64,000 nt of DNA, from NCBI GenBank assembly GCA_903858755.1, contig CAIOKC010000032.1, positions 29,930-93,929 on the forward strand, written 5' to 3'. Origin of the DNA: an uncultured bacterium. GTDB taxonomy: Bacteria > Patescibacteriota > Minisyncoccia > Phycocordibacterales > UBA2100. Each line of letters opens with the position of its first letter. The first letter of the stretch is position 1. The notes under the pieces are model-generated. The model was not told where the DNA came from. It ran no database searches and was given only the letters and a program-made list of their open reading frames with translations. Of this stretch, positions 5,664-56,073 are shown piece by piece. Position numbers and translations under genes: made by a program.

Positions 5664-6089
5664 CTAGCGGCTCTCGACGTCCACCCCCATGCTGCGCGCC
5701 GTGCCCGCGATGATTTTCTTGGCTTGCTCAAGATCGTTGGCGTTCAAATCTTCCATCTTGTCTTTCGCGATATCCTCAAGCTGCTGCTTCGAGAGCTTGC
5801 CCACTTTGTTCTGCGGCTTGTCCGACCCCTTCTCGATGCCGAGCGCCTTCAAGACCATGCGGGAGGCAGGCGGCTTTTTCACGATGAAGGAGAACGTGCG
5901 ATCCTTATAGACCTGCATGACGACCGGCAAAATACTACCGATTCTATCTTTGGTCTGCGCGTTGAATTGATTGACGAATTCCCCGATATTGACGCCCGCA
6001 GGACCAAGCACCATACCCACCTGCGCAGCAGGAGTAGCGGTACCCCCCGGAAGCTGCAATTTGATTACTTTCGTTATTTCTTTTGCCAT
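5664..6089 (-). CDS. rplK: 50S ribosomal protein L11
   Basis: [43 protein letters not shown]... is a canonical L11 sequence. Confidence 0.9.
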
Positions 6090-6128: not shown

Positions 6129-7118
6129 TTATTTCAAGCTTTTGAGCTTCGTCAGGATTGGACGTGCCAGCTTCCGTGCATTCCCATGCGAGAGCAGCCC
6201 ACTGTATGATTCCAGCACCGGTTTGCTCTCGCTTCTCGCCGTGGCGCTCATCATCCGCCGCTTCGTCGCGGTGCGCAGCACGCGGTGGTCGGGAAAATGC
6301 ACCCAGCCCAGGAAATCGACACCGGATGCGAGCGTCTTGATGAACACCTTGTCGGGATGGAGTGTGAGTGCGAGTCGGCGCTCAAGAAATTCTGCAATCT
6401 TCGGGAGCAGGATATCAAGGTCCGACCTTGACGCAGAGAGGAAGACGAAATCATCCGCGTAGCGGACGTAGTGCTTCGCTTTCAGACGATGCTTCACGAA
6501 TTGGTCGAATTCATTCATGTAGATATTTACCAACAGTTGGCTCGTGAGGTTGCCGAGCGGGAGTCCCCTGTGCTGACACCGATTCCCCACGGTCGTGGTG
6601 AATCGGTGGCGGTGCGGGCTGCAGGAGCAGAAGCTCCCGATGATCTCCGAGAGGAGCGCGAGGATGCGCTCGTCTGCAATCGAGCGGCGCAGGATGTCGA
6701 GCAGAATAGATTGATCGATACTCGCGAAGAATTTCCTGATGTCGCACTTGAGTACCCAGCAGGTGCGCGTGTGATTGCGCGAGACTGTGTACGCAAAGCG
6801 GCGAAAGCGGTCCATTGCCTTGTGCGTACCCTTTCCTCTCCGGCATGAATACGAGTCTGCGATGAAGGCGCGATCGAAGAAGGGATAGAGCATGCGGTAT
6901 ATCGCATGGTGGAGCGCGAAGATGTTGTCCATGAGCGCGTGCTGGAATTCCTGTACATCGAGCTTCTTGCGCTTGCCCCGCACAAATTCTCGCCAAGCTT
7001 CGAGGAGATTTTCTACCGAGATGATATCCTCGTAGTTATGCGCGAAGCGGATGCGACCAATACGCCCCCCCGGCCGAGGACTGCTGCCTGTTTTGGAGCG
7101 CATCAAGACCGCGTACAT
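6129..7118 (-). CDS. Reverse transcriptase, diversity-generating retroelement (DGR) type
   Basis: 329 aa with RT motifs 1-7 and YADD. Motif 4 reads GLPLGNLTSQLLVNIY, the [I/L]GxxxSQ signature of DGR RTs, rather than the QGxxxSP of group II intron or retron RTs. No maturase/X domain. The N-terminus (NYEDIISVENLLEAWREFVRGKRKK) fits DGR RT starts. Confidence 0.75.
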   Translation of the reverse strand: MYAVLMRSKTGSSPRPGGRIGRIRFAHNYEDIISVENLLEAWREFVRGKRKKLDVQEFQHALMDNIFALHHAIYRMLYPFFDRAFIADSYSCRRGKGTHKAMDRFRRFAYTVSRNHTRTCWVLKCDIRKFFASIDQSILLDILRRSIADERILALLSEIIGSFCSCSPHRHRFTTTVGNRCQHRGLPLGNLTSQLLVNIYMNEFDQFVKHRLKAKHYVRYADDFVFLSASRSDLDILLPKIAEFLERRLALTLHPDKVFIKTLASGVDFLGWVHFPDHRVLRTATKRRMMSATARSESKPVLESYSGLLSHGNARKLARPILTKLKSLK

Positions 7119-7587
7119 TTTGTGGCATGAGTACCATTCTAAACTGCCAAAGACTCACCGATACACCGTTGGTGCAAAGATAGATTCGCTGTTCGCAGAG
7201 GTGATGGAGATGGTATCGGCGGCGGCATTTTTGCCGAAACAGGAGAAACTGTCCTATGTACGGACCGCGATACGAAAGTCTGACGCGCTGAAGCTCCTGC
7301 TTCTGATTCTGTGGGAAACGAAATCTCTTGATACGAAGAAATACGCCGCGCTATGCGCGCCACTCGATGAGGTGGGCAAGATGCTCGGCGGCTGGCAGGG
7401 GCAGCTTGTAAAAAACTCAGCCCCGCGCGAAGGCGCGGGGCTGAAGTGCAAAGGTCAAAGCGGCCAAGTGCAATACAAGTGTCAGAGAGTCGAAGACACT
7501 TCCGGGACGCCAGCGAACGACCAGTCGTCGTGCCAGTCGAGGCCGCCGCGGCTGACGTACACGCGGCGCGCGTCAGGCCAGCGGTAG
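7051..7587 (+). CDS. Four-helix-bundle protein of the Avd / 23S-rRNA-IVS family (putative DGR accessory variability determinant)
   Basis: LPKTHRYTVGAKIDSLFAEVMEMV...LKLLLLILWETKSLDTKKYAALCAPLDEVGKMLGGWQGQL fits the PF05635/Avd-like pattern (PKxxRYxL..Q..RAA ... EVGKMLxGL). The ORF has no stop until 7587. It reads through the convergent gene's terminator hairpin and overlaps the 3' end of the 7482-8126 gene on the opposite strand, so the true C-terminus is uncertain and it may be decayed. Confidence 0.5.
   Translation: MRPIRPPGRGLLPVLERIKTAYILWHEYHSKLPKTHRYTVGAKIDSLFAEVMEMVSAAAFLPKQEKLSYVRTAIRKSDALKLLLLILWETKSLDTKKYAALCAPLDEVGKMLGGWQGQLVKNSAPREGAGLKCKGQSGQVQYKCQRVEDTSGTPANDQSSCQSRPPRLTYTRRASGQR
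7417..7442 (-). terminator. GC-rich hairpin (11-bp stem, GAAG loop) followed by T6 on the minus strand. Intrinsic terminator of the 7482-8126 gene and possible DGR VR-proximal hairpin.
   Basis: cagccccgcgcgaaggcgcggggctg. On the minus strand the hairpin is followed by agtttttt. Confidence 0.5.
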
Positions 7588-22773: not shown

Positions 22774-22818
22774 CCAATATTCCAAATCCTACGCCATGGC
22801 GGAGGATTGGGAATATTG
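22774..22818 (-). promoter_or_regulatory. 17-bp-arm imperfect inverted repeat between the riboflavin kinase stop and ribE start (terminator/attenuator-like hairpin)
   Basis: ccaatattccaaatcct acgccatggcgg aggattgggaatattg; 15/17 arm complementarity; central gccatggc palindrome. Confidence 0.3.
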
Positions 22819-24280: not shown

Positions 24281-26341
24281 CTAGAGTCTCGTCACGGTGG
24301 TGGTGGCGCCTCGCGCGCCGCCTCCGATCGTCTGGCAATTGAGCACGTAGTCTTGCGTCGATGTGATCGATGAAGTCTCTGCGGTGCCCGATACGCTCGT
24401 ATTGGAAGAATTGCGCGTCGTGAAATCCGAATCGCTCGGACTCGAGACCACGCACGACTTCATGCCGGTCGTGATCCACCCGATGATCGATTTTTCGCCC
24501 GAAGCGACGCTCTTCGGATTCGCGACAAGGACGATCGAGGGCACGGCGACCTGAACCGAGCACTGCGCGCCGGTCGTCGCTCCGCCGCTAGTGCAGGTGA
24601 GCGTGTACGTCGCGGTGTTCTTCCCCGCCGGAGGCGTGGCGATCGTCGTCGTCGCCGTGCCCGAGGGCGAAGTGGTCGCGGTAAATCCTCCGCCTACCGC
24701 GACACCAGAAGCGCAGGAGTACGAGATGGCGAGCGTCATGCCCACGTCTGCCACTTTCGGCTCGCACGAAAGCGTCGCGCCGCCTGTGCCAGAATTCGGG
24801 ACGCATTGCCATCCCGTGATGCAGGAGCCGCTCTGCGTGGGCTTCCACGTGCCCGCGGTGCAGCTCTCTGCCGCCGGCTGCGGCGGCTGCGACTGGCATT
24901 GCTGGCTGGTCGACGGCGTGCACGGCACCGGCTGGATCGGCGGCACTACGCTCGAGCTCTGACCGTACATGCTGCTCAATTGCTGCTGATAGTTGTATTG
25001 CTGGAGCTGGAGATTGTATTGCTGGAGCTGCTGCTGATATTGCTGCTGCTGCTGCGCATACGTATTGGGATCGGTGGAGCATGCTTGCGCAGGCGCTTGC
25101 GGCGGCTTCGGCTGCAATAGACCTTTCAAAAGATTCGCGAGCGCGGGCAGCATCTTCCCGATGCCGTCTCCCCCGCCGGTCCCACCACCTCCTCCGCCTC
25201 CGCCGCCACCTGCGCAAAGAGATCCCGTGCATTCCGGCTTTATATCTGTACACACAGAATTAACTTTCGTCTGACCTACTGGACATGGAGTGTTCTCACC
25301 GAGGGCAGGTGGAGTCTCTGCCTGCTTTTTAAGAGCTTCAAGTGTACGGAGGTCACGCGCGTCACAATACCCAGCATCGCATTGAGCCTTTAATCTGCCG
25401 TAGGCGTCCTTTGCCTCGACCTGTTTCTCGTATGCCCTAAGGGTCTGCAGGTCTCTCGCGTCACAGTGTCCCGCAGCACACTGAGCTCTCAGATTCGCAA
25501 TGTCTGCCGACTTGTCGGCATCAACCTTCTTCGTATCTTTAAGCGCATTATCAATATCAGCCGGAGTGCCCTTTTGATCTTCGCCGATTCCATCACACTG
25601 ATCTTGCCCGCAGGCAGCAAAATTTTGAAGTGTTTTCTGTGCAGCATCCGCTTTCAGAGGATCATTCGGATCACTAAATACACTAGTATCGCGCTTTCTC
25701 TCCTCTAGGGCAGCGTTGACCTGATCAAGAGCATTTTGGCTCATTGGGGGCAGTGATGCTCCCGGGTTGTTCATCATACTGTCCGCGATTTTTCTCGGAG
25801 CTTCCTCAACTGCCCGCTGTGTCTCTTTCGCAAGCACGAAATTAAGATCGTCGTTTGCTCGCGCAAAATCTGTCCCTTGAAGATAAATGCTTTTCAGGAT
25901 CTTGCACTTATTCAGGTCTTCTTCTCCTTTTGGACAGTCGTATAACCGGCACGATGCATTCTTTGCACTTATTTCTTCTACTTTTCTTGCGGTAACGACC
26001 GAAACGAATTTGCCTTTTTGTATATCTCCATGCACAGCATATGTGACATTGTAATTTTTGATTGCACCGCTCACCTGCTTCTGACACACGCACTGCTGCT
26101 TGTTTTCGGTTGCCGTATCTGCGATGAACGATTGCCCCTCTTTTGGACACGCAAGACTGACCTTCGACTTATCCGCGGGCGGCGGTGTGGCGCGAACACC
26201 GGGGACAATGGGGGTAATAAGTGCAGCAGCGGTCTGCGCCTCGGGATTTCCTGAAGCAGAGATGCCGAGCGCAGCTACTCCCAAAAGCCCTACCAATACA
26301 AGAGCGGCAAGGAGCGAGACGCCACGCTGTGAGGCACGCAT
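24281..26341 (-). CDS. Large secreted low-complexity protein (poly-Gly, poly-Gln, tandem QC(D/A)AG(Y/H)CDARDL(R/Q)TL repeats)
   Basis: 686 aa, N-terminal signal/TM, Cys-rich repeats, G16 and Q-rich tracts, C-terminal Thr/Gly-rich beta-rich domain. Paralogous in architecture to 30953-32431. Confidence 0.55.
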   Translation of the reverse strand: MRASQRGVSLLAALVLVGLLGVAALGISASGNPEAQTAAALITPIVPGVRATPPPADKSKVSLACPKEGQSFIADTATENKQQCVCQKQVSGAIKNYNVTYAVHGDIQKGKFVSVVTARKVEEISAKNASCRLYDCPKGEEDLNKCKILKSIYLQGTDFARANDDLNFVLAKETQRAVEEAPRKIADSMMNNPGASLPPMSQNALDQVNAALEERKRDTSVFSDPNDPLKADAAQKTLQNFAACGQDQCDGIGEDQKGTPADIDNALKDTKKVDADKSADIANLRAQCAAGHCDARDLQTLRAYEKQVEAKDAYGRLKAQCDAGYCDARDLRTLEALKKQAETPPALGENTPCPVGQTKVNSVCTDIKPECTGSLCAGGGGGGGGGGTGGGDGIGKMLPALANLLKGLLQPKPPQAPAQACSTDPNTYAQQQQQYQQQLQQYNLQLQQYNYQQQLSSMYGQSSSVVPPIQPVPCTPSTSQQCQSQPPQPAAESCTAGTWKPTQSGSCITGWQCVPNSGTGGATLSCEPKVADVGMTLAISYSCASGVAVGGGFTATTSPSGTATTTIATPPAGKNTATYTLTCTSGGATTGAQCSVQVAVPSIVLVANPKSVASGEKSIIGWITTGMKSCVVSSPSDSDFTTRNSSNTSVSGTAETSSITSTQDYVLNCQTIGGGARGATTTVTRL

Positions 26342-26420
26342 ACCGCAATCATGCGCCCCAGAAGCATTCGGTGCAATACAAAAATGTGGAAAAGGACCGA
26401 CCTTCAGGCTTTTCTATCAT

Positions 26421-26492
26421 TGCTCCCGGCAGGAATCGAACCCACATTACATCCTCCGCAAGGATGCGTCCTATCCATTGAACGACGGGAGC
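26421..26492 (-). tRNA. tRNA-Arg (anticodon read as GCG)
   Basis: gctcccgtcgttcaatggataggacgcatccttGCGgaggatgtaatgtgggttcgattcctgccgggagca; anticodon loop ttgcgga. Confidence 0.7.
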
Positions 26493-26539
26493 TATCGAGG
26501 GAAATGTAGCACAGGTCTCTCCTTTTCCCCAACACCACC

Positions 26540-26575
26540 ATTAACAAATACGCACGGTCGGACGCATTTGTTAAT
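26540..26575. repeat. Palindromic repeat family member P1 (ATTAACAAA...CGGTCGGA...TTTGTTAAT)
   Basis: attaacaaatacgcacggtcggacgcatttgttaat, between tRNA-Arg and the PaaX-like gene. Confidence 0.7.
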
Positions 26576-26587
26576 ATACGAGGAACT

Positions 26588-27178
26588 ATGAACAACGGAG
26601 GCGGAGTCGAGCAGCGCGCGAGAAGCAAGATCTTTCGAGGAGCATTGAAGACCGCGATCCTTCAGGTCGCCGCCACGGTGGGGATACTCTCGCTTGCGGT
26701 CGTTGCTCCCAACACGCTCAAAGCAATCCCCCGCGAGACGCTGAATCTCGTTTTTAACAGACGAAAGAATTCCCGCAATGTGACCATATCGCGTCTTGTA
26801 AAAGAAGGTTTTCTTACTCGGGAACACCACAGAGGGACACGGGTGCTCCGAATCACGAGCAAGGGTCTGAGGTATCTTGAGCACGAGCGGCAAAAGCACG
26901 CGCTCAAAAGACCGGGGAAATGGGACAGGCACTGGCGTATCGTTGCTTTCGATATCGGAGAAAAGCGCAGGAAAACGCGCGACGCGCTTCGGCGGGAACT
27001 TCGCAGCGCTGGATTTTTCCGCTTGCAAGACAGCATGTGGGTCTACCCCTTCCCGTGCGAAGACTTTATTGCGCTGCTGAAAGCAGATCTCCGAGTGGGC
27101 AAGGATATCTTGTACGTCGTTGCGAGAGAGATCGAGAATGACGCGTTTCTTCAAAAACACTTCCGCCTGGTCGCATAG
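26588..27178 (+). CDS. PaaX-family transcriptional regulator-like protein
   Basis: 196 aa; C-terminal WDRHWRIVAFDIGEKRRKTRDALRRELRSAGFFRLQDSMWVYPFP matches the PaaX C-terminal domain pattern. Confidence 0.5.
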   Translation: MNNGGGVEQRARSKIFRGALKTAILQVAATVGILSLAVVAPNTLKAIPRETLNLVFNRRKNSRNVTISRLVKEGFLTREHHRGTRVLRITSKGLRYLEHERQKHALKRPGKWDRHWRIVAFDIGEKRRKTRDALRRELRSAGFFRLQDSMWVYPFPCEDFIALLKADLRVGKDILYVVAREIENDAFLQKHFRLVA

Positions 27179-27186
27179 AAGGTGGT

Positions 27187-27222
27187 ATTAACAAAAACGT
27201 CCGACCGGACGTTTTTGTTAAT
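27187..27222. repeat. Palindromic repeat family member P2
   Basis: attaacaaaaacgtccgaccggacgtttttgttaat; 16-bp arms, immediately after the PaaX-like stop. Confidence 0.7.
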
Positions 27223-27271
27223 GTCGGCGGAGGGCGCGTTCAAGGCACATCCCCCACCCGAGAAGAGGGTA

Positions 27272-27538
27272 TTACTTCGCAAGCGCGGCGATGCGCTTCG
27301 CGATGCGAGATTTCATGCGCGCAGCCGTGTTTTTCTTGATGGTACCGCCCTTCGCCGCCTTATCGAGCGCCTTGTGGAGAGCGGGAAGCAGTGCAGCCGC
27401 CTCTGCGGCGCTCTTTCCCTCGATCGACTTGCCGATATTCTTCATCGCGTCCTTCACCGCCTTCTTGCGGCGCGCATTAAAAACGCGCTTGCGGGATGCG
27501 ACGCGCTGTGCCTTTTTTGCGGAACGTGTCTTTGCCAT
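27272..27538 (-). CDS. rpsT: 30S ribosomal protein S20
   Basis: MAKTRSAKKAQRVASRKRVFNARRKKAVKDAMK... Confidence 0.9.
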   Translation of the reverse strand: MAKTRSAKKAQRVASRKRVFNARRKKAVKDAMKNIGKSIEGKSAAEAAALLPALHKALDKAAKGGTIKKNTAARMKSRIAKRIAALAK

Positions 27539-27690
27539 ATATATGTATATGACGTCTTCGCTCGCCTCTCAAGAAAGTGAACTTTCTTGATTTGGCTCGC
27601 TAGCCGCCATAACGCTGGGATACTACAGTACAAAAACGCCGGGCGCAATGCCGATTTCAGGACTTCGGCGGAGTAGCCTATACTTGCCGT

Positions 27691-28257
27691 ATGATAGGAC
27701 ACTTGAAGGGTGAGGTCTTCGCGGTTCGCGGAGGTTCCGTGATTCTCTCGGTACAGGGCGTCGGATATGCAATCGCGATAACGCGGGAGGCGCTCGAGGG
27801 TCTCAAGGTCGGCGCGGAAGCTGCTTTGTGGACGCACCTTGCGGTGCGAGAAGACGCGCTCGACCTCTACGGATTTGCAAACGAGGAAGAACTGCGGTTT
27901 TTTGAGCTTCTCCTCACGGTCCCCGGCATTGGTCCGAAATCCGCGCTCGCGGTGATCGATATCGCGTCTCTCGAGACGCTGCGCAACGCGGTCGCATCCG
28001 GCAACGCATCGTACCTGACCAACGTCTCCGGCATCGGCAAAAAGACGGCGGAAAAGATCGTACTCGAACTCCGCGACAAAGTCGGCGCCGTCGATGCGCG
28101 CGCTTCTCTCACCGGAGACGAAGAAGCCTTGCAGGCGATGCGCGCGCTTGGATACACCCAATCTGAGGCGCGCGAAGCGCTCCGCAAGGTGCCATCCGCC
28201 ATCGAGACATCGAGCGACCGGCTGCGCGAAGCGCTGCGAATTCTCGGATCCCGATGA
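27691..28257 (+). CDS. ruvA: Holliday junction DNA helicase RuvA
   Basis: MIGHLKGEVF...; OB domain, two HhH motifs (LLTVPGIGPKSALAVI; LTNVSGIGKKTAEKIVLEL), C-terminal domain III. Confidence 0.9.
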   Translation: MIGHLKGEVFAVRGGSVILSVQGVGYAIAITREALEGLKVGAEAALWTHLAVREDALDLYGFANEEELRFFELLLTVPGIGPKSALAVIDIASLETLRNAVASGNASYLTNVSGIGKKTAEKIVLELRDKVGAVDARASLTGDEEALQAMRALGYTQSEAREALRKVPSAIETSSDRLREALRILGSR

Positions 28258-29519
28258 GTATGCCCAAGATACGGACAGCGCTGCGTTCGCTCCTCCCCGC
28301 TCGGCTGATCTCCCTCTACCATCTTGCGTTCGCGTATGCCGGCGCGCTCCTCTATGGATTTCCTTCGAGGAAACTTCTCGTCATTGCGGTCACCGGCACC
28401 AAAGGAAAATCCTCCACGGTCGAATGCGCAAACGCCATCCTCGAAGCCGCCGGGTATCGGACGGCGCTCATCAATTCGATTCGCTTCAAGACCGCAGACA
28501 CGTCAGTACCCAATGCGCTCGGTCGCTCGACCCCTGGGCGTTTTTTCATACAAAGATTTCTCCGGGACGCGCTCAAAAAAGGGTGCACCGCGGCGATCCT
28601 TGAAATGACGTCGGAAGGCGCGCGACAGCATCGCCATCGCGCAATCGCATTTGATGCGCTCATCTTCACGAATCTTGCGCCCGAGCATATCGAATCGCAC
28701 GGGTCGCTCGAAGCATACAAGGACGCCAAATTCGAAATCGGCGCGGCGCTTGCGCGCTCCGCAAAGCGACCGCGCATCGTCGTCGCACATGCGGACGATG
28801 CGGAGAGCGCCCGCTATCTCGACCTCCCCGTAGAAAAGAAATCCGCCTTTTCACTCGATTCTGCCGCACCATACGAAGCCGGCGAGAAAGGAGGATTTTT
28901 CACACTCGAAGGGGCGCGGATACCGATCTGTCTGCCCGGAGAATTTTCTCTTAAAAACGCGCTCGCGGCGGCGGTGTGCGCGCGAGCGCTCGGCGTCGAT
29001 CTCTCCGCAATCGAGCGCGGTCTCGGGGCACTGCGCCGCATTCCCGGCCGTGCCGAATCGATCGACCTCGGGCAAGACTTCCTCGTCGTCGTCGACTATG
29101 CGCACACTCCCGAATCGCACGAAGCGCTCTACAAAGCATACGATTCGCGCAAGAAAATATGCGTCTTCGGCTCCGCAGGCGGCGGACGCGACACATGGAA
29201 AAGACCCGTGATAGGCACAATCGCGGAGAGATACTGCGCCCACACCATCCTCTGCGACGACGAAGTGTACGACGAAGACCCGGAGCGGATTATCGACGCC
29301 ATCGCATCGGGCATGTCGAAGCCGCCGGACATAATCCGCGATCGCCGCCGCGCGATACGCCGCGCGCTCGAGCTCGCAAAGAAGGGAGACGCGGTTTTGA
29401 TAACAGGCATGGGAGTCCACGGCATGATGATGCAGCCAGACGGGCGCACGGAAGAGTGGAGTGATGTCGACGTCGCACGTGAAGAACTCGGCAATCTCCT
29501 GAAGACAAGGGCGCTATAA
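28254..29519 (+). CDS. Mur ligase family protein (MurE/MurF-like UDP-N-acetylmuramoyl-peptide ligase)
   Basis: VIAVTGTKGKSST P-loop; Mur ligase middle and C-terminal domains; 421 aa, so it lacks the usual N-terminal domain. Confidence 0.7.
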   Translation: MSMPKIRTALRSLLPARLISLYHLAFAYAGALLYGFPSRKLLVIAVTGTKGKSSTVECANAILEAAGYRTALINSIRFKTADTSVPNALGRSTPGRFFIQRFLRDALKKGCTAAILEMTSEGARQHRHRAIAFDALIFTNLAPEHIESHGSLEAYKDAKFEIGAALARSAKRPRIVVAHADDAESARYLDLPVEKKSAFSLDSAAPYEAGEKGGFFTLEGARIPICLPGEFSLKNALAAAVCARALGVDLSAIERGLGALRRIPGRAESIDLGQDFLVVVDYAHTPESHEALYKAYDSRKKICVFGSAGGGRDTWKRPVIGTIAERYCAHTILCDDEVYDEDPERIIDAIASGMSKPPDIIRDRRRAIRRALELAKKGDAVLITGMGVHGMMMQPDGRTEEWSDVDVAREELGNLLKTRAL

Positions 29520-29526
29520 TGGAAGC

Positions 29527-30507
29527 ATGGTACGGCGCATTCTTCTGCTGTTGCTTCTCTTCATGGTGGCGGCGCTCGTCGTCTTGTGGCTGATCACAGG
29601 CGGGATATCTGCGATTGCACAGACGGCAAAAAACTTCGTAAATCCGATCAACATCTTCTCCGGAGGAGACGCTACCGGATCTTTCATCAGACTGCCGTGG
29701 CAAATCGACGCGCCGCGCGGACCGGATCTTTCGTCGATCGGCGGAGAAAGCGGAGAAAGCGGTCAGACACCGGAGGAGTACGCGACCGCATACGAGCAGC
29801 TCAGCGCGCGCGCTGCGGCGCTCCAAACATTTGGAGAGCCGTCGCCGTACGCGGGGAGCATCGCGATCAGCGGCAGTGCGGTGCGAGAAGGAGCCGCAGC
29901 GCACGAGTACGTCGAACTCCGCGCATCGGGCGGCACTCCGCTCACTATCACCGGATGGTCTCTCCAGAGCGCGGTCTCGGGACTTCGCATTTTTATCCCG
30001 CCCGCCGCGTCTCCCTTCACCCTGGGCGCACTGAATCCGTCGGAGCAGGTATCCATGCGCCCGGGCGAAACGGCAATCGTCGTCTCCGGTCCTTCTCCGC
30101 TCGGAGTATCCTTCAAAGAAAACGCGTGCAGCGGATATCTCAGCGAATTGCGATCGTTTACGCCGGAGCTTTCGAGCGCGTGCCCCGCTCCGTCCGATCT
30201 ACTGATCGAGACGCCCGATAGTCTCCGCATCTACGGAAGCTCGTGCTTCGATTACGTGCAAACGATCCCGCAGTGCCACTTCCCCGGCACCGCGTACCCA
30301 GCAAACATCTCCGCGCCATGCCGCACACTGCTCGCCAACACGCTCTCATACAACGGGTGCGTGCAGGCACATCGGTACGACTCTTCTTTCGAGCGTTCGA
30401 CCTGGCGCATCTACCTCAACTCCCGCGCTACTCTCTGGGACGACGCGCACGACATCATACGGCTCATGGACGCCGAGGGGCGGACCGTCGACGTGTATAC
30501 GTACTAA
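29527..30507 (+). CDS. Secreted protein with lamin-tail-like domain
   Basis: N-terminal TM; HEYVELRASGGTPLTITGWSLQSAVSG resembles the LTD fold signature. Confidence 0.45.
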   Translation: MVRRILLLLLLFMVAALVVLWLITGGISAIAQTAKNFVNPINIFSGGDATGSFIRLPWQIDAPRGPDLSSIGGESGESGQTPEEYATAYEQLSARAAALQTFGEPSPYAGSIAISGSAVREGAAAHEYVELRASGGTPLTITGWSLQSAVSGLRIFIPPAASPFTLGALNPSEQVSMRPGETAIVVSGPSPLGVSFKENACSGYLSELRSFTPELSSACPAPSDLLIETPDSLRIYGSSCFDYVQTIPQCHFPGTAYPANISAPCRTLLANTLSYNGCVQAHRYDSSFERSTWRIYLNSRATLWDDAHDIIRLMDAEGRTVDVYTY

Positions 30508-30525
30508 TACGATATACTGTCTGGC

Positions 30526-30924
30526 ATGCTCTCTCTTTTCCCGCAGATTCTCTTTCTCTCTCCTCTCGCGGCGACCATCTTGCGCGTCGCTGCCGCGCTC
30601 GTCTTTTTCTCCGTCGCCTATGCGCACTACCGAAAACGACAGGAATTCGCATTCCTCGATTTCCCTTTCGTCGGACGCGGCGCGTGGATACCGATCTTCG
30701 CCGCGGGAGCGGAGCTCGCGATCGCCCTCGCGCTCAGCGCCGGAATCTATACGCAGCTCGCAGCGCTCTTCGGAGCAATCGGCGCTCTAAAATTCTTGGT
30801 GCTGAAGAAGCGGTACCCGGCGTTCGTCCCTATTTCCAAAACTGCGAGCGCGCTCCTCTTCGTCATCTGTATTTCGGTCGTGTTCACCGGCGCGGGAGCA
30901 TTTGCTTTCGATTTGCCGCTCTAG
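30526..30924 (+). CDS. DoxX-like small membrane protein
   Basis: 132 aa, 4 TM helices. Confidence 0.45.
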   Translation: MLSLFPQILFLSPLAATILRVAAALVFFSVAYAHYRKRQEFAFLDFPFVGRGAWIPIFAAGAELAIALALSAGIYTQLAALFGAIGALKFLVLKKRYPAFVPISKTASALLFVICISVVFTGAGAFAFDLPL

Positions 30925-30942
30925 TGGTATATTGCGCAAAAC

Positions 30943-31015
30943 CGCCCATAGCTCAGTCGGTAGAGCAGCTGCCTTTTAAGCAGTTTGTCGTAGGTTCGAT
31001 TCCTACTGGGCGGAC
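30943..31015 (+). tRNA. tRNA-Lys (anticodon TTT)
   Basis: ccgcccatagctcagtcggtagagcagctgcctTTTaagcagtttgtcgtaggttcgattcctactgggcgga. Confidence 0.9.
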
Positions 31016-32431
31016 GAGATACAAAAACAGCACCAACGTGCTGTTTTTGTTTACTCGTCCGGGTCGGAGCGCGACGGCGCGAGACGTGCCCAGGCAAATT
31101 TTCAGCAGAAAATTATGCGTGGGGACAAAGTAAATAGACCGATTCACCACCTCGTACCCCGTCACGTGAGAGCCGTCGGGCGCATCGCACGAAATCGAAA
31201 ATGTCGTCGCGCCCGTGATGGGGACGGTCGCGGCGCCGCCCGAGAGCGTGTTGTGCTTGAAGCTTCCGTCGGGCGAGATCTCGGTGCAGTTCGACACGCC
31301 CTGAGTGTTCCAGAAAATCGTCGTGCGTGCGCCGAGCGGGACAGCAGCGGGCACCGCCCAGATGTCTACCTTGGGCGGAATCGCGGGTGCCGTCGCGACG
31401 GGAGCGGGCGCTTCCGGAGCCGCGCTCGTCGCGGGCTTCGCGGTATTCGCCTTGATCAGCGTCTGCTGAAGCGAGGGCGACTGCTGCACGGGCTCCGGCA
31501 TGCCCACCTGGTAGCCGCGCGACGTGCACAGACCGTCGAAAAAGGTCGGCGGAATAACAAGCGACAGGAAATTCTTCGTCCACGGGCGCGATTGGCACCA
31601 CTGCCCGATCAGACCCTGCGGCTGTCCCATGGTGCCAGCGCCATAGAATCCCGCGGTCTCGGTATTCTGCTGCTCGCTTCGTGAGCCTGCGACGAGCGTC
31701 GCTCCCCCGGTGAGCAACTTGAAATCGCCGAAGACTCCCGGCAAGCCCGGAGTGAGACCGACCGAGCCCTGCGGGACGGGGAGGGTCGACGTCGTCGCGA
31801 GGATCGACGCAGAAAGAGAGGCGCCTTCGTCTGTATTGGTATTGGTATTCGTGTTGACGTTGTCGAGCAAGGTCGCGCTCAGGTCGGCGCCGGAAGAATC
31901 TCCCCCGAGCGCGTCGAGAAGCGCGCCGGATCCACCCACGGTCGACGCGGAGCCAGCCGGCACGTAGGTCGCGCACGGATTTCCCTGAAGCAGAGCGACA
32001 TCGCTCACCTGCACATACTGCGTGCAGGTGGTCGAGGTAGTGGGCGGCGGTGTCGCAGGCGCGCCCCCTCCTCCCCCGCCCGGCGGCTTGCCCTGCATGA
32101 GTTTGCCCATCAGATCGCCGAGTATTTTTGCGACTTGATCCAGTCCGAGCCCTTTTCCGTCTCCGGTGATGCCCTTACAAATTCCAGGAGCCACACACTT
32201 TCCTGCTGTTACTTTCCCGTTCGTGGTATCTTGACAGTCCACAAGCGGACAGAATTTTGGTGACTGCGGATCCAGAACACACGGGCAAGGCGCCTGTCCA
32301 ACTGCATGCGCAGCCGACGGCCCAGTGAGAAGAAAGAAGAGCCCAATGAATAGTCCGATAATTAACGTCCTGACTTGAGACCCTGAAACACTAAGATTGT
32401 TCATAATTCCCAATAAATCAAATAGTATCAC
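30953..32431 (-). CDS. Secreted Gly/Thr-rich protein (paralogous architecture to 24281-26341); 3' end uncertain
   Basis: 492-aa ORF with signal peptide, Cys-rich N-terminal module, G6 tract and NTNTNTNT repeat. The ORF has no stop until it has crossed the tRNA-Lys gene and its terminator on the opposite strand, so the true end may be earlier or there may be a frameshift. Confidence 0.45.
   Translation of the reverse strand: MILFDLLGIMNNLSVSGSQVRTLIIGLFIGLFFLLTGPSAAHAVGQAPCPCVLDPQSPKFCPLVDCQDTTNGKVTAGKCVAPGICKGITGDGKGLGLDQVAKILGDLMGKLMQGKPPGGGGGGAPATPPPTTSTTCTQYVQVSDVALLQGNPCATYVPAGSASTVGGSGALLDALGGDSSGADLSATLLDNVNTNTNTNTDEGASLSASILATTSTLPVPQGSVGLTPGLPGVFGDFKLLTGGATLVAGSRSEQQNTETAGFYGAGTMGQPQGLIGQWCQSRPWTKNFLSLVIPPTFFDGLCTSRGYQVGMPEPVQQSPSLQQTLIKANTAKPATSAAPEAPAPVATAPAIPPKVDIWAVPAAVPLGARTTIFWNTQGVSNCTEISPDGSFKHNTLSGGAATVPITGATTFSISCDAPDGSHVTGYEVVNRSIYFVPTHNFLLKICLGTSRAVALRPGRVNKNSTLVLFLYLVRPVGIEPTTNCLKGSCSTD
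31021..31047 (+). terminator. Intrinsic terminator after tRNA-Lys
   Basis: aaaaacagcaccaacgtgctgtttttg: 6-bp stem cagcac/gtgctg, then T5. Confidence 0.5.
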
Positions 32432-33069
32432 ACCCCCGAGAGCGCAAAACGCTCCAGCGCATATTCCAAATCCTCACCCCTCCGGCGCGCTTCGTGGGGC
32501 AAAGCGGCAAGCGCTGCGATGATCTTCTTCGCCCTCTCTCTCGTTTTCTCGTCCCGCGACTTTGTACACATGTCTTTGGCACCCCAGAAGAGTACGCCGT
32601 GCACGGCTTCCGGCGCTTTCCCGCCCATAAGCTCGCGCTGAAGACCGAGCCAAAGCGCCCGCCTATCTTGCGCGCGAAGCGCATTCGCGAGCGTGAAGAT
32701 GCTTGAATCCTTCCCCTTCGCGGGCGCGTCGAATTGTTGCACCTTCTCCGCATGCTTCTCGATGCGCTTCTTCGCATCGGCGTCGAGCTTGCCTTCCAGC
32801 ATGAAAAAAACATCGGGCGACGCCGCGACCGACGGCAATGCGGCGAGAAAAATGCCGCGCATTTCTTCATTCGCGAGAATGCCGTCGAATGCCGCTACTT
32901 GCCGCTGCCCGAACATGCCCGCGCCCCGAAGCGCGGCGCGCAAATCGCTCGCCGCGTTTGCATCAGTGATGCGCACGAGCTGCGCACCATCGCCTACAGC
33001 CTTCTCCACCTCGGCGCGCATCGCCGCACGCGCTTTTGCTCTGTCGGTACCGCCGTAGAAATGCAACAT
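32428..33069 (-). CDS. DNA polymerase III delta-subunit-like protein (putative HolA, short)
   Basis: 213 aa, MLHFYGGTDRAKARAAMRAEVEKA...; weak resemblance to the HolA N-terminal and middle domains; upstream of polA. Confidence 0.35.
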   Translation of the reverse strand: MLHFYGGTDRAKARAAMRAEVEKAVGDGAQLVRITDANAASDLRAALRGAGMFGQRQVAAFDGILANEEMRGIFLAALPSVAASPDVFFMLEGKLDADAKKRIEKHAEKVQQFDAPAKGKDSSIFTLANALRAQDRRALWLGLQRELMGGKAPEAVHGVLFWGAKDMCTKSRDEKTRERAKKIIAALAALPHEARRRGEDLEYALERFALSGV

Positions 33070-33107
33070 GCCATCTAGTATACGCCCGCTCGCGGCACGT
33101 GTCGCAT

Positions 33108-33143
33108 ATTAACAAACTCGTACGGTCGTACGAGTTTGTTAAT
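33108..33143. repeat. Palindromic repeat family member P3
   Basis: attaacaaactcgtacggtcgtacgagtttgttaat (the arms extend to gcatattaac...gttaatatgc, 33104-33147); between the holA-like gene and polA. Confidence 0.7.
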
Positions 33144-33160
33144 ATGCAGACAAACGACAC

Positions 33161-35578
33161 TCAGCGGGCGAGCTTCTTCATGGCGCCCCAATTTTTGCCG
33201 AGCGATGCCTCCGCAACGACAGGGACGCCGGAGAGCGCTCCGGTCGGGGCTGCGGATTCCATCACCTTCCGTATTTTCTCCGCCGCTTCTTCTGCGACAT
33301 CTTCGTCGAGCTCGTAGACGAGCTCGTCGTGCACCTGCATGATGAGCTTCACCTTCTCCCGCCACCCCGCCTGCTCGATGAGCGCATCCGCCTCGACCAT
33401 CGCGAGCTTGATGATGTCGGATTGCGTCCCCTGTATGGGCGCGTTGATCGCCATGCGCTCCGCCTGCGCGCGCAGACCGTCCATCGAGGACTTGAGCGCC
33501 GGGAAGTAGCGGCGTCTTCCGAAGAGCGTCTCGGTGTACCCTTTGTTCGCTGCGTCCGCCTTCGTATGCTCGATGTAGCGCGAAAGCCCGGAAAAGTTCT
33601 TGAAATACTCAGAAAGAAATTTCGCGGCGTCCTCGCGGGAGACGCCTTCTCCGAGATTCGCGCGGAGCGCATTCACGCCCATGCCATAGAGGATGCCGAA
33701 ATTGATCACTTTCGCGCGACGCCGCATTTCGTAGTCCACATGCTCGGGCGGCACATTGAATACTTCGGCAGCGACCGCCGTATGAATGTCGCCGCCTTTT
33801 TTAAATACCTCGACGAGTTTCTCGTCGCCGGAGAGACCCGCCGCGATGCGGAGCTCTATCTGCGAGTAGTCGATGGCGCAGAGGATCTTCCCCGGAGGCG
33901 CCGCAAACGCTTCGCGAATGCGGCGCCCGTATTCCGTCTTGATGGGTATATTCTGCAAGTTCGGATTCTGGCACCCCATGCGCCCCGTCACGGTGCCTGT
34001 CTGCAAAAACTCCGCATGCAGCCGCCCGTCCTTTGCGATAAGCCCGGGCATTTTCTCGATGTATGTGGAGAGCAATTTCTGCAATTCCCGATACGCGAGA
34101 ATGTCGGCGATGATCGGGTGCATCTCCGAGAGCTTCTCGAGCTCGCTTTCTTTTGTCGTGCGCGCGCCGGTCGGCGTTTTCTTCTGCTTCAGGGGCACGA
34201 TCTTGAGCTCATCGTACAAGACGGTCGCAAGCTGCTTCGGCGAATTGATATTGAATTCGCGCCCCGCATGCGCGTATATCCTCCCCGCGAGACTCCCGAG
34301 CTCCTTCCCGTACTCGCGCGCCAGCTCCGCAAGATGCGGCGCATCGACGTAGACGCCAGCCGCATTCATGCGCTCGACTACCGGCATGAGCGGGCGCTCG
34401 ATCTTTTCGTACACCTCATGCAGCCTTCCCGTCTTCCTCAGCTCTGCAAAGATGTATTCGCGCGCCGAGTCGAAATCGCTCGTCTTCGCGTACGCGAGAA
34501 TATCCTCGAGTGTCGGCGTCGTCGTGTCTGAGTGCAAAAGCCAGAGCGCGAGCGCAGCTTCGCCGAACAAGCGGGGGTCGACCTCGGGATGCGATGCCAC
34601 ACTCGCTGCCGGCTCTTTCGAAAAAGCTCTGCGGAGGCGCTCCTTGAGCGCCCTGAATTCAAGCTCGTCGTAGAGCACGGAAATGCTTTCTACGTGCTCG
34701 CCAAGCTGCCAGCGCTCTTTCGGCAACTCAAACTCGATCGGGGCGTCCGTATGAATGGTCGCGAGCGTCTTCGAGAGCGCGGCGTCTTTTTTCCCGGCTC
34801 GAAGCAATTCGACGACGCGCGGCTTCACTTTTTGCGCGAACGACGCCGGATCTTTTTCGAGCGCCCGGTAGATGTCTTCGACCGAACCGAACTCCTTGAT
34901 AAGCTCGGTCGCCGTCTTCTCTCCGATGCCCCGTATGCCGGGGATGTTGTCCGACGGATCGCCGCGAAGACCTTTGTAATCGACGACGCGGTCGGGATCG
35001 AATCCATACCGCTCGCGCACCGCGTCTTCGTCGTAGAGGACGGTATCGTTGATGCCTTTGCGGAGAGTGTAGACACAGACGTTCGGGCTCACGAGCTGAA
35101 GAGTGTCCATGTCCCCCGTCGCGATGATGAGCGCAAGATCCTTACGATCGCCAAGCTTCCTCACGATGGTGCCGATGATGTCGTCGGCTTCGTATCCTGC
35201 CTGCTGGTAGACAGGAATACCGAATGCCTCGAAGACGCGCGGCGCGCGTTCAAGCTGAGCGACAAGTTCGTCTTCCGCCTTCGCGCGAGTCCCTTTGTAC
35301 GCCTCAAAAAGCCCGTGGCGGTGCGTGTCGCCCGGCATGTCGCGCGCCGCGATGATGTAATCGGGCTCGATCTCGTCGACCGCTTTCAGGAGCATGGTCG
35401 AGAGACCGTAGAGCGCGCCCGTGGGCTCGCCCTTGCTCGACGAAAAATCCGGAAGCGCGTGGTACGCGCGATGCAAAATCGCGTGCGAATCGAGGATGAG
35501 TACCCGCAGTGCCTTTTCAGTTTCCCTCTGTGCTTTTTGCTTCGCCATTGGCAGTGATGATACGCCCCTCTCCGACAA
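33161..35578 (-). CDS. polA: DNA polymerase I
   Basis: 805 aa: 5'-3' exonuclease domain, then polymerase motifs A (IMQVHDELVYE-like region), B (RRRAKVINFGILYGMG) and C. The likely start is MAKQKAQ at about 35548. Confidence 0.9.
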   Translation of the reverse strand: MSERGVSSLPMAKQKAQRETEKALRVLILDSHAILHRAYHALPDFSSSKGEPTGALYGLSTMLLKAVDEIEPDYIIAARDMPGDTHRHGLFEAYKGTRAKAEDELVAQLERAPRVFEAFGIPVYQQAGYEADDIIGTIVRKLGDRKDLALIIATGDMDTLQLVSPNVCVYTLRKGINDTVLYDEDAVRERYGFDPDRVVDYKGLRGDPSDNIPGIRGIGEKTATELIKEFGSVEDIYRALEKDPASFAQKVKPRVVELLRAGKKDAALSKTLATIHTDAPIEFELPKERWQLGEHVESISVLYDELEFRALKERLRRAFSKEPAASVASHPEVDPRLFGEAALALWLLHSDTTTPTLEDILAYAKTSDFDSAREYIFAELRKTGRLHEVYEKIERPLMPVVERMNAAGVYVDAPHLAELAREYGKELGSLAGRIYAHAGREFNINSPKQLATVLYDELKIVPLKQKKTPTGARTTKESELEKLSEMHPIIADILAYRELQKLLSTYIEKMPGLIAKDGRLHAEFLQTGTVTGRMGCQNPNLQNIPIKTEYGRRIREAFAAPPGKILCAIDYSQIELRIAAGLSGDEKLVEVFKKGGDIHTAVAAEVFNVPPEHVDYEMRRRAKVINFGILYGMGVNALRANLGEGVSREDAAKFLSEYFKNFSGLSRYIEHTKADAANKGYTETLFGRRRYFPALKSSMDGLRAQAERMAINAPIQGTQSDIIKLAMVEADALIEQAGWREKVKLIMQVHDELVYELDEDVAEEAAEKIRKVMESAAPTGALSGVPVVAEASLGKNWGAMKKLAR

Positions 35579-55320: not shown

Positions 55321-56073
55321 TTAAAGTATAGCAACGTTTTCCTGCTCATCCGGCGTACGTGCGTGGAATATGTCGAACAATGTGTCGACCGAGGCGATTT
55401 CGGCGGGAGGAATGGGCAGCGCATCTTTCGAAAGGAGTTTCGACTCTTGCCGCGTGCCGCTGCAGTAGTCGTTGAAGCTGGAATACTTGTATGTCTGTAT
55501 GAAGGTTGCCGCGCGCTCTTTCTCCGCGATGCCGTGTTCCCGCCAGCCGGGCTGCAAGAGGTCTAACGGATTCAGGTGTATATATGAGAACAGCCAGCGC
55601 ATGTACTCATCCGAATCTGCGTGCTTTGATCGGAACGGTCGAGCGAACAGCGGTCCGCTCCGCTGGTGTTTTGTGTTGAAGTACATCGAGTACGCGGTCA
55701 TGAGCTTGAGCATGAACTTTGATATGCCTCCCTCGGTGCTCTCACGCAGGGCAAGGTGAATATGATTGGGCATCAGCGCATACCCCATGATTGCCGTGAG
55801 ACGCCCCTCTTCCGGTTTGGACTCGCCTTCTAGCCACTTTATCAAGGGTTCCCCTTGATATTTCTTCAGAGTGTTCGCGACATGGACGGGCTTCTTGCTG
55901 TTGCACAGGAGGAGCAGGAGCATGAATCGGTCATAGTCGCGATTTTCTAGGAATATCGTCCTTTTTTCGACTCCGCGCGTGTACACGTGGTAGTTCTCGC
56001 CCTCTACAAAGGGAACCTTCCTCTCCATGAGGTCATCATAGCGTATTATCAAGGGGACCCCTTGATAATCCAC
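55321..56073 (-). CDS. IS200/RAYT-like HUH Y1 single-strand DNA nuclease/transposase-family protein
   Basis: YHVYTRGVEKRTIFLENRDYDRFMLLL; HUH motif LMPNHIHLAL; YSMYFNTKH; GPLFARPFRSKHADSDEYMRWLFSYIHLNPL, which aligns to TnpA-REP/RAYT (QPRFWEHAIRN...DYIYINPVKHG). No flanking intergenic DNA. Confidence 0.65.
   Translation of the reverse strand: MDYQGVPLIIRYDDLMERKVPFVEGENYHVYTRGVEKRTIFLENRDYDRFMLLLLLCNSKKPVHVANTLKKYQGEPLIKWLEGESKPEEGRLTAIMGYALMPNHIHLALRESTEGGISKFMLKLMTAYSMYFNTKHQRSGPLFARPFRSKHADSDEYMRWLFSYIHLNPLDLLQPGWREHGIAEKERAATFIQTYKYSSFNDYCSGTRQESKLLSKDALPIPPAEIASVDTLFDIFHARTPDEQENVAIL

Follow-up and report, generated by a model that had tools for sequence, protein, structure and literature searches.

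Palindromic 36-bp sites around a short PaaX-like gene in Patescibacteria: predicted operators of the encoded protein

In a 64,000-nucleotide stretch of DNA from an uncultured member of the Patescibacteriota (GenBank assembly GCA_903858755.1, contig CAIOKC010000032.1, positions 29,930 to 93,929; hereafter, the window), a small gene for a PaaX-like protein (26588–27178, plus strand) stands between two copies of a long palindrome, P1 and P2, and a third copy, P3, is found at a distance from it. What are these palindromes, and why does the gene have one on either side? A first-pass annotation of the window attributed them to selection on a hairpin or cruciform structure, considered that they might be repetitive extragenic palindromic (REP)-like elements, and mentioned a protein operator site as a fallback. 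The comparative evidence favors the fallback. We put at roughly 0.7 the probability that P1, P2, and P3 are double-stranded DNA operators (PaaX boxes) for the short PaaX-like protein itself. This reading is carried by the association of sites and gene across related loci, the concerted divergence of the site arms, the way in which these arms covary with the protein's recognition helix, the overlap of upstream sites with promoters, as judged by geometry, and the similarity of the protein to the PaaX fold.

Three palindromes and a PaaX-like gene

The three sequences were found where the first-pass annotation had placed them. P1 (26540–26575), the predicted upstream operator, reads ATTAACAAA-TACGCA-CGGTCG-GACGCA-TTTGTTAAT; 12 nt lie between its end and the start codon (ATG) of the PaaX-like gene, while a divergent tRNA-Arg gene is about 47 nt away. 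P2 (27187–27222), the predicted downstream operator, is a perfect palindrome located 8 nt past the stop codon, between the PaaX-like gene and the convergent rpsT. P3 (33104–33147), the copy remote from the regulator gene, consists of a 36-bp core (33108–33143) with arms extended to 21 nt; it is found 13 nt past the stop codon of polA and abuts the -35 element of a promoter-like site of the next gene. None of the three is assigned to a strand. All follow a common layout, ATTAACAAA, 6 nt, CGGTCG or CGACCG, 6 nt, TTTGTTAAT, which measures 36 bp end to end and has the same arm spacing in each copy (9-bp arms, N18 between them, CGRYCG in the center). The conserved ends reported earlier are thus present in all three copies, but the conserved CGGTCG core is not, since P2 carries the reverse complement, CGACCG. 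The copies fall within 7 kb, the distance from P1 to P2 being 647 bp.

When the window was searched for TTAACAAA-N(10–30)-TTTGTTAA, three matches were obtained, compared with 0.00 expected from 100 dinucleotide-preserving shuffles. P1, P2, and P3 are real and not a product of chance. The exact half-site TTTGTTAAT occurs inside these three palindromes only, and isolated half-sites are therefore absent from the 64 kb.

The copies differ in their internal symmetry. Self-complementarity is 100% for P2 (17-nt arms) and P3 (21-nt arms), and the three inner pairs at which P2 and P3 differ are all compensated; P1 is imperfect, with three of its seven inner pairs mismatched on DNA. The earlier statement that the variable inner bases remain self-complementary consequently applies to P2 and P3 and fails for P1. 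RNA folding, which had been proposed as a check, gave the same division: for P2 and P3, very stable folds were obtained whichever strand was taken (−21 to −34 kcal/mol, z −5 to −11), whereas P1 folds weakly on the plus strand (−9.6 kcal/mol, z −2.0) and better on the minus strand only through G·U pairs. In P2, a T-run is found behind the G+C-rich stem (GGACGTTTTTGTT). A consensus scan left all three copies unflagged as terminators, and an Rfam search of 26000–34000 at E ≤ 1 found no match to the palindromes; its hits were two tRNAs and one sub-threshold match opposite the tRNA-Lys gene.

The gene bracketed by P1 and P2 is, as had been noted, a single PaaX-like one: its 196-aa product matches the Pfam PaaX_M model (PF20803) with 69.2 bits against a cut-off of 24. 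The protein comprises a K/R-rich tail, a conserved hydrophobic helix, a winged helix-turn-helix, and the Cas2-like PaaX_M domain. In an AlphaFold2 model (pLDDT 82), a winged helix-turn-helix, with the helix-turn-helix and wing at residues 43–90, is followed by a ferredoxin-like domain. The best Foldseek match of this model is E. coli PaaX (8a39, E 1.2e-5), the next being Rv0674, and the C-terminal half also matches Cas2 structures; a sequence profile search returned weak matches to 3kfw and 8a39. Pfam gave no match to the PaaX_C domain, the protein stopping after PaaX_M, nor to the PaaX N-terminal model, and no transposase, integrase, or HUH domain was found with Pfam and NCBIfam. The match to TIGR02277 is partial (residues 65–166) and scores 49.9 bits against an equivalog cut-off of 264.55. 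Because the PaaX_C domain is missing, the TIGR02277 score is low, and the gene is surrounded by tRNA-Arg, rpsT, ruvA, and a Mur ligase gene instead of paa genes, the protein is not a PaaX equivalog. Its modeled fold and domain matches identify it as a two-domain relative of PaaX that probably binds DNA. The nearest named homolog comes from Candidatus Kaiserbacteria, and the family, clustered at 50% identity, comprises 691 clusters under a threshold of E ≤ 1e-30 and about 3500 when the threshold is relaxed to E ≤ 1e-10.

Conservation of the site-gene-site layout

The comparison set consisted of 90 related loci from genomes and metagenomes of the Candidate Phyla Radiation (CPR)/Patescibacteria; the site counts refer to 83 non-redundant loci that contain a homolog. 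Homologs of the window protein were traced to their contigs, and 80 metagenomic loci with relatives 39–48% identical to it were added. A 36-mer counted as a site if 13 or more of its 18 pairs were complementary and it was located no more than 140 nt from the gene. An upstream site was found in 58 of 80 loci and a downstream site in 68 of 79, compared with 2.3% of 2949 background zones of equal size. Once arm matching was added, both sites were present in 66 of 76 loci, and almost all of the ten loci that failed the arm-matching test show degenerate or slightly re-spaced copies on inspection. Sites on both sides in nearly all loci make the site-gene-site arrangement a trait of the family and not a peculiarity of the window.

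The sites also belong to this gene and to few other places. Of the strict-layout sites found in related loci (516 kb in total), 80 adjoin a PaaX-like gene and 6 do not, the latter corresponding to about 1 per 100 kb, and a family hidden Markov model detected no second paralog in any locus. Downstream copies begin at a median of 15 nt past the stop codon, and the neighbor beyond them is convergent in 44 of 74 loci. The genomic contexts vary (a ribosomal-protein operon, recA/efp, a glycosyltransferase cluster, aroC/fusA), and tRNA genes often adjoin the loci; an early impression from five loci that the cassette is always antisense within an operon was rejected, the orientation classes numbering 19, 18, 17, and 9. 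In one groundwater genome (locus L123, 9867–10600), the palindrome-flanked PaaX-like gene lies on the opposite strand between rpsN (S14) and rplE (L5), in a ribosomal-protein cluster that is broken by two more small opposite-strand open reading frames (ORFs). Closer to the window, six genomes with protein identities of 51–69% have preserved the gene order PaaX-like gene, rpsT, ruvA, Mur ligase gene.

Counted from the outside toward the center, complementarity is 0.72–0.98 at pairs 1–9, which form the arms, about 0.5–0.6 (~55%) at pairs 10–12, about 0.7 at pairs 13–14, and 0.9–1.0 at pairs 15–17. The center follows the consensus C-[GT]-[AG]-[TC]-[AC]-G and appears as CGGTCG, CGACCG, CGATCG, or CTATAG; a single locus can contain both center types, in its upstream and downstream copies. 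The paired copies of a locus agree at 29.6 of 36 bases, and copies from different loci at 15.8 ± 4.7. In the clade of the window, the arms drift jointly in both copies, which read ATTAACAAA, CTTACACAA, CTTATCAAA, CTTAACATA, CTTAATTA, or ATTACCTAA depending on the genome.

We then related arm sequence to protein sequence by entropy-corrected mutual information between protein columns and arm bases (positions 1–9) in 75 loci. Mutual information was concentrated in the predicted recognition helix, residues 60–73 (permutation p = 0.003), with top columns 62, 61, 58, 67, 65, and 68. For the inner DNA positions, the same test revealed no enrichment in the recognition helix. Consistently, three proteins that have ATTAACAAA-type arms and are ~23–32% identical all contain T-[IL]-S-R in the recognition helix. 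Residues 58–68 of this helix and arm positions 1–9 may thus constitute a candidate protein-DNA code.

A scan for ATTAACAAA-N18-TTTGTTAAT over 185,579 species-representative genomes gave at least 116 matches, most of them single chance matches in A+T-rich genomes. Among the matches listed, five have a CGRYCG center at the exact position: four in CPR loci (L033, L035, L049, and L073) and one in Thalassotalea (L062), which is probably a chance match. In L049 (Parcubacteria) and L073 (Patescibacteria), one palindrome lies directly upstream and another directly downstream of a gene for a distant PaaX_M protein, ~23–32% identical. The two Saccharibacteria sites (L033, 2229–2264; L035, 1628–1663) read ATTAACAAA-N6-CG[AG]TCG-N6-TTTGTTAAT, and no PaaX-like gene was found in the 2.8 and 8 kb examined around them; they may be regulator-remote copies, or their regulator may be encoded elsewhere.

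Sites with other arms were seen as well. Locus L170 contains three tandem 36-bp sites (5667–5796), 46–48 bp apart and 85–215 nt upstream of smc, with a common core, TGACGRYCGTC, and three arm pairs, one of which equals the arms of the sites of the local PaaX-like gene; this suggests that several paralogous specificities converge on one promoter. L206 also has a site with another arm type. In L186 (1132–1825), a different pair of 36-bp palindromes (..AATAATTATCCrTACGGATAATTATT..) surrounds a 146-aa ORF beside smc. We considered this pair as the mark of a second paralog and ruled it out, as the flanked ORF is unrelated and has no Pfam match; the placement of a small gene between two palindrome copies may not be limited to the PaaX-like family.

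Promoter geometry and competing explanations

In 32 distinct loci, the upstream copy ends at the ATG or has its last base in common with it. At a distance of exactly 6 nt from the ATG, 19 of the 32 contain a TAnnnT hexamer; among downstream copies, 4 of 29 have one at the equivalent position. A -10 so placed, inside the right arm, fits a leaderless promoter and would put the palindrome upstream of the transcript. In all six loci of the window clade, the putative -10 element is made of the last four arm bases plus AT (TAATAT or TAAGAT). In the window itself, a putative -10, TAATAT (26572–26577, plus strand), read from the sequence, comprises the last 4 nt of P1 and the following AT and is part of an extended -10, TGtTAATAT (26569–26577). 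In other subfamilies, TATAAT is found a few bases past the site. Within downstream copies, -10 boxes gave no clear signal in either direction.

It is unlikely that the palindromes act mainly as RNA hairpins instead, that is, bidirectional intrinsic terminators or 3′-end stabilizers that insulate a small gene and whose symmetry is selected for the stem. Such hairpins would agree with the very stable folding of P2 and P3 on both strands, with the location of P2 between convergent genes and of P3 13 nt past polA, with the likeness of P2 to a terminator at 31018–31053, and with the short distance between stop codons and downstream copies. They would also agree with the three compensated P2/P3 differences and with the strong symmetric covariation in the clade alignment, with 84% of cells paired, changes on both sides at 12 of 16 pairs, and a score of 0.383, compared with 0.148 for shuffled data. 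Symmetric covariation does not discriminate, however, because a homodimer on identical half-sites with drifting specificity predicts the same pattern. Within loci, we counted 23 compensatory double changes, compared with 17.0 ± 3.3 when independent substitutions were simulated under the same palindrome-score filter, and 164 one-sided changes; a raw 4-fold excess of compensatory changes (48 versus ~12) was mostly gone once this ascertainment was simulated. Mismatches lack a wobble bias on either strand (G·T versus A·C, 33 versus 41 in upstream copies and 40 versus 44 in downstream copies), and pairs 10–12 are complementary at ~55% only. A T-tract (at least 5 T in the next 8 nt) follows just 6 of 65 downstream copies and is lacking from the other 59, most arm types being not T-rich. 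Upstream copies, with a -10 inside and an end at or over the start codon, would in many cases lie upstream of the inferred transcription start and outside the sense transcript, and a stem leaves the covariation of arms and recognition helix unexplained. Together, these sequence-based tests favor a DNA operator over an RNA or DNA hairpin and speak against selection on a hairpin or cruciform structure, as first proposed. The accompanying statement that the palindromes have no U-tract and are not ordinary terminators is correct for the family and less clear for P2 and P3: P2 has the anatomy of a G+C hairpin followed by a T-tract, P3 has it in part, and P1, with its promoter position and weak stem, does not. 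An added terminator role of P2 and P3 alongside the operator role is possible.

Mobility of the palindromes, with or without the gene, has to be weighed in two forms. A mobile or formerly mobile cassette, in which the palindromes are recombination ends read by the encoded protein or a host factor, would account for the tight bracketing of the gene in nearly all loci, the widely differing contexts (including the opposite-strand copy between S14 and L5), and the frequent adjacency of tRNA genes; a regulator that mostly binds around itself is, moreover, typical of selfish modules. We nevertheless consider it improbable, as synteny is held in six genomes despite divergence of the arms at their positions, only one copy is present per locus, target-site duplications do not exceed chance (1.38 nt versus 1.37 for shuffled partners), the protein has no transposase, integrase, or HUH domain, and viral contigs nearly lack the family (1 locus in 2.9 million). 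The duplication, copy-number, and synteny results likewise speak against the suggested resemblance to a miniature inverted-repeat element. Still less credible, to the point of being nearly negligible, is the second form, in which REP/REPIN-like elements are mobilized by an IS200-like, RAYT-like Y1 transposase at 55321–56073. The palindromes are short and intergenic, and a 250-aa ORF does exist at that position, but on the minus strand (the plus-strand frame has 6 stops), and its similarity to Y1_Tnp is weak (25.8 bits in Pfam; 30.8 bits for NCBIfam REP_Tyr_transpos, far under the cut-off of 80). This ORF lies 28 kb away and has no such palindromes in its flanks, and a RAYT homolog was found in 1 of 85 other loci. 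Dispersal is lacking: three copies in 64 kb, all within 7 kb, no lone half-sites, and 80 sites next to the PaaX-like gene versus 6 elsewhere. REPIN-type close doublets are absent, and arms vary between genomes in step with the PaaX-like protein. There is also little to recommend the idea that the sites are operators of another DNA-binding protein encoded elsewhere, with the PaaX-like gene as target and not as binder. Binding by the PaaX-like protein is a prediction, its N-terminal hydrophobic segment casts doubt on a cytoplasmic location, and the other arm types in L170 and L206 imply several specificities per genome; yet an unlinked regulator would have to shift its specificity together with this gene, lineage after lineage, the covariation of arm identity is specific to the recognition helix of the PaaX-like protein, and PaaX-family proteins autoregulate via long-spaced inverted repeats (PMC9493321).

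For the preferred reading, operators of the PaaX-like protein, a mechanism can be proposed. A dimer, or a higher oligomer formed via the Cas2-like domain, would present one winged-helix recognition helix to each outer 9-bp arm, the arm centers being 27 bp apart, and the conserved CGRYCG center would act as a third contact or as a structural element. P1 would cover the -10 of the leaderless or short-leader promoter that serves the gene itself; occupancy of P1 would block RNA polymerase, and the protein would repress its own synthesis by negative autoregulation. On the opposite side of P1, about 25 nt from its edge, the divergent tRNA-Arg promoter (TGcTACATT) might be affected as well. The family evidence suggests that a second site past the stop codon is under selection, and P2, as this second operator, might function in cooperative looping with P1 over ~650 bp, as a protein roadblock, or as an insulator against read-through; in addition, in this genome, where its arms are A/T-rich, it may be a bidirectional terminator by its A-tract, G+C stem, and T-tract (AAAAACGTCCG-ACC-GGACGTTTTT). 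P3 would put a holA-like gene downstream of polA under the same regulator. No equivalent of P3 was found in the syntenic relative L120, which would make the target of P3 lineage-specific.

Several observations weigh against the operator reading. Residues 22–40 of the protein form a conserved 19-residue hydrophobic stretch (Kyte-Doolittle mean ~2.0) with small-xxx-small motifs, which is seen across the ~190-aa subfamily. Placed behind the K/R-rich tail, it looks like a membrane anchor, unexpected for a DNA-binding repressor, and by the positive-inside rule the DNA-binding part would then face the outside of the cell. The distant homologs of L049 and L073 are without this segment, and their sites are kept regardless. 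The concerted divergence of the two copies could also stem from gene conversion between flanking repeats, and the mutual-information test is confounded by shared ancestry, though its regional contrast speaks against that. The perfect symmetry of P2 and P3, with three inner pairs compensated, is unexplained by a protein that reads arms and center only. Finally, the downstream operator has no obvious promoter to control; its neighbor is convergent in 44 of 74 loci.

There is some room, though we think it quite unlikely, for a function beyond autoregulation, in which the protein marks its own gene as a discrete DNA segment: either as a self-recognizing, possibly mobilizable cassette, or by tethering defined chromosomal sites to the membrane. 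The cassette version is raised by the ribosomal-operon copy, the tight bracketing, and the Cas2-like domain, and the tethering version by the conserved N-terminal helix that resembles a membrane anchor. Under either version, paralogs with different arm codes would converge on few loci, for example upstream of smc.

Known counterparts, neighboring features, and significance

In E. coli, the PaaX box is TGATTC-N27-GAATCA, a 39-bp sequence whose half-sites lie at its ends; at Px, its own promoter, PaaX acts as a repressor that obstructs RNA polymerase (PMC9493321, review). The window protein resembles PaaX in its N-terminal winged helix and central Cas2-like PaaX_M domain, with 8a39 as best fold match. 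Its sites, like the PaaX box, are long inverted repeats with the half-sites far apart (9-bp arms separated by 18 bp, for a total of 36 bp), and P1, placed over the regulator's own promoter, would imply autorepression by the same block of RNA polymerase. The differences are considerable. The protein is 196 aa long, compared with 316 aa for PaaX, and lacks the ligand-binding PaaX_C domain, and no paa catabolic genes are nearby. The family has a conserved CGRYCG or CTATAG center, a predicted leaderless promoter embedded in the site, a second predicted operator directly past the stop codon in nearly every locus, and a hydrophobic N-terminal helix, and it is found in CPR/Patescibacteria.

Repeated operators located hundreds of base pairs apart, one of them at the promoter, are typical of looping repressors (lac O1/O2/O3, gal OE/OI, deo). 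The P1/P2 pair, 647 bp apart, is comparable by functional analogy, but here the gene for the regulator lies entirely between the two sites, the second of which is found past its 3′ end. Integron attC sites are imperfect palindromes of 57–141 bp that flank single ORFs and contain R″/R′ cores (RYYYAAC/GTTRRRY). Conserved ends, a variable and mostly complementary interior, and the flanking of single promoter-proximal ORFs recall attC; identity with attC was rejected, there being no integrase, no R″/R′ core in most arm types, a length of 36 bp, single cassettes, and stable synteny. With REP/REPIN elements, the palindromes have in common their size (30–45 bp), intergenic position, ability to form hairpins, and the presence of an IS200-like Y1 gene in the same window. 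They differ from them in a very low copy number tied to one gene, in arms that track the PaaX-like protein, and in the absence of Y1 linkage and of doublets. P2 and, less clearly, P3 are similar to bidirectional terminators (A-tract, G+C stem, T-tract) at gene 3′ ends. Unlike terminators, P1 and the upstream copies of the family are located at promoters or start codons, the length is a constant 36 bp, and sequence is conserved in both arms and center, the arms being specific to the locus.

The gene map around the palindromes begins on the left with a 686-aa ORF and the tRNA-Arg gene (26421–26492), both on the minus strand. A TGnTACATT motif resembling an extended -10 is found about 10 nt upstream of tRNA-Arg (window 26493–26540) and is kept in the syntenic loci L119 and L120. 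To the right of P2 comes rpsT (minus strand), followed in order by ruvA, the Mur ligase gene, an LTD-domain ORF, a 132-aa ORF, and tRNA-Lys, all on the plus strand. Directly past tRNA-Lys, at 31018–31053, we found an ordinary-looking bidirectional terminator, GATACAAAAACAGCAC-CAAC-GTGCTGTTTTTGTTTA, with A/T flanks similar to those of P2; it is this anatomy, ACAAAAAC-stem-GTTTTTGT, that P2 resembles. A 492-aa ORF (30953–32431, minus strand) and a 213-aa ORF (32428–33069, minus strand) precede P3, and polA (minus strand) lies beyond it. The 213-aa ORF, the candidate extra target of the regulator, is weakly similar to DNA polymerase III delta (holA): its TIGR01128 match (E 0.0095, 15 bits) is far under the cut-off, and a Pfam search gave no match. 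In front of it, a promoter-like GCGACA-17-TATACT (33077–33105, minus strand) was identified by consensus match only (9 of 12 positions). The -35 of this site overlaps P3 at its edge, and the -10, again in a leaderless arrangement, ends 7 nt before the ATG of the 213-aa ORF.

Other palindromes and neighborhoods deserve mention. A fourth 36-bp site of the 9-6-6-6-9 type, with a CGGTCG center and other arms (GACACCGAT...ATCGGTGGC), is present at 6575–6610; about 0.03 such sites are expected per shuffled window. It sits within a reverse transcriptase ORF (RVT_1, 86 bits, minus strand), which overlaps a plus-strand bAvd-like ORF (window 6129–7587 for the pair), and the two together look like a diversity-generating retroelement. 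A near-perfect 44-bp palindrome, CAATATTCCAAATCCTACGCCATGGCGGAGGATTGGGAATATTG, at 22775–22818, between flavokinase-like and riboflavin-synthase-like ORFs (both minus strand), lies ~40 nt upstream of the riboflavin-synthase-like start and may be an operator or terminator of the riboflavin gene cluster. In locus L208 (4518–9087), two N6/N4 methyltransferase genes, a LexA-like/S24 peptidase gene, and a ThsB-TIR gene are found upstream of the PaaX-like gene; this region looks like a defense or prophage-type island that replaces the context of the other syntenic genomes. A phage or defense origin of the family as a whole was rejected: beyond the single locus among viral contigs, PHROG hits were marginal, and PADLOC hits concerned the Cas2 domain only.

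PaaX repressors and PaaX boxes are already known. A literature search found no paper tying PaaX-like proteins to CPR or to Cas2, and the short CPR family, its fixed 36-bp grammar, the promoter embedded in the site, and the universal second operator are not described in the literature searched. Database names such as "CRISPR-associated endonuclease Cas2" and "PaaX" suggest unrelated functions, and for these proteins they would be corrected. If the module is merely an autoregulated repressor with few other targets, its biological interest would be moderate; the universal second operator past the stop codon is, in any case, an unexplained design feature. To our knowledge, almost nothing is known about transcriptional regulation in CPR/Patescibacteria, most of which are uncultured and little studied directly. 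What would be gained for these bacteria is a large regulator family with a predicted operator, a 36-bp site grammar, a leaderless promoter built from the site, and a candidate residue-base code, and in vitro tests of the predictions would require synthetic protein and DNA but no cultivation.

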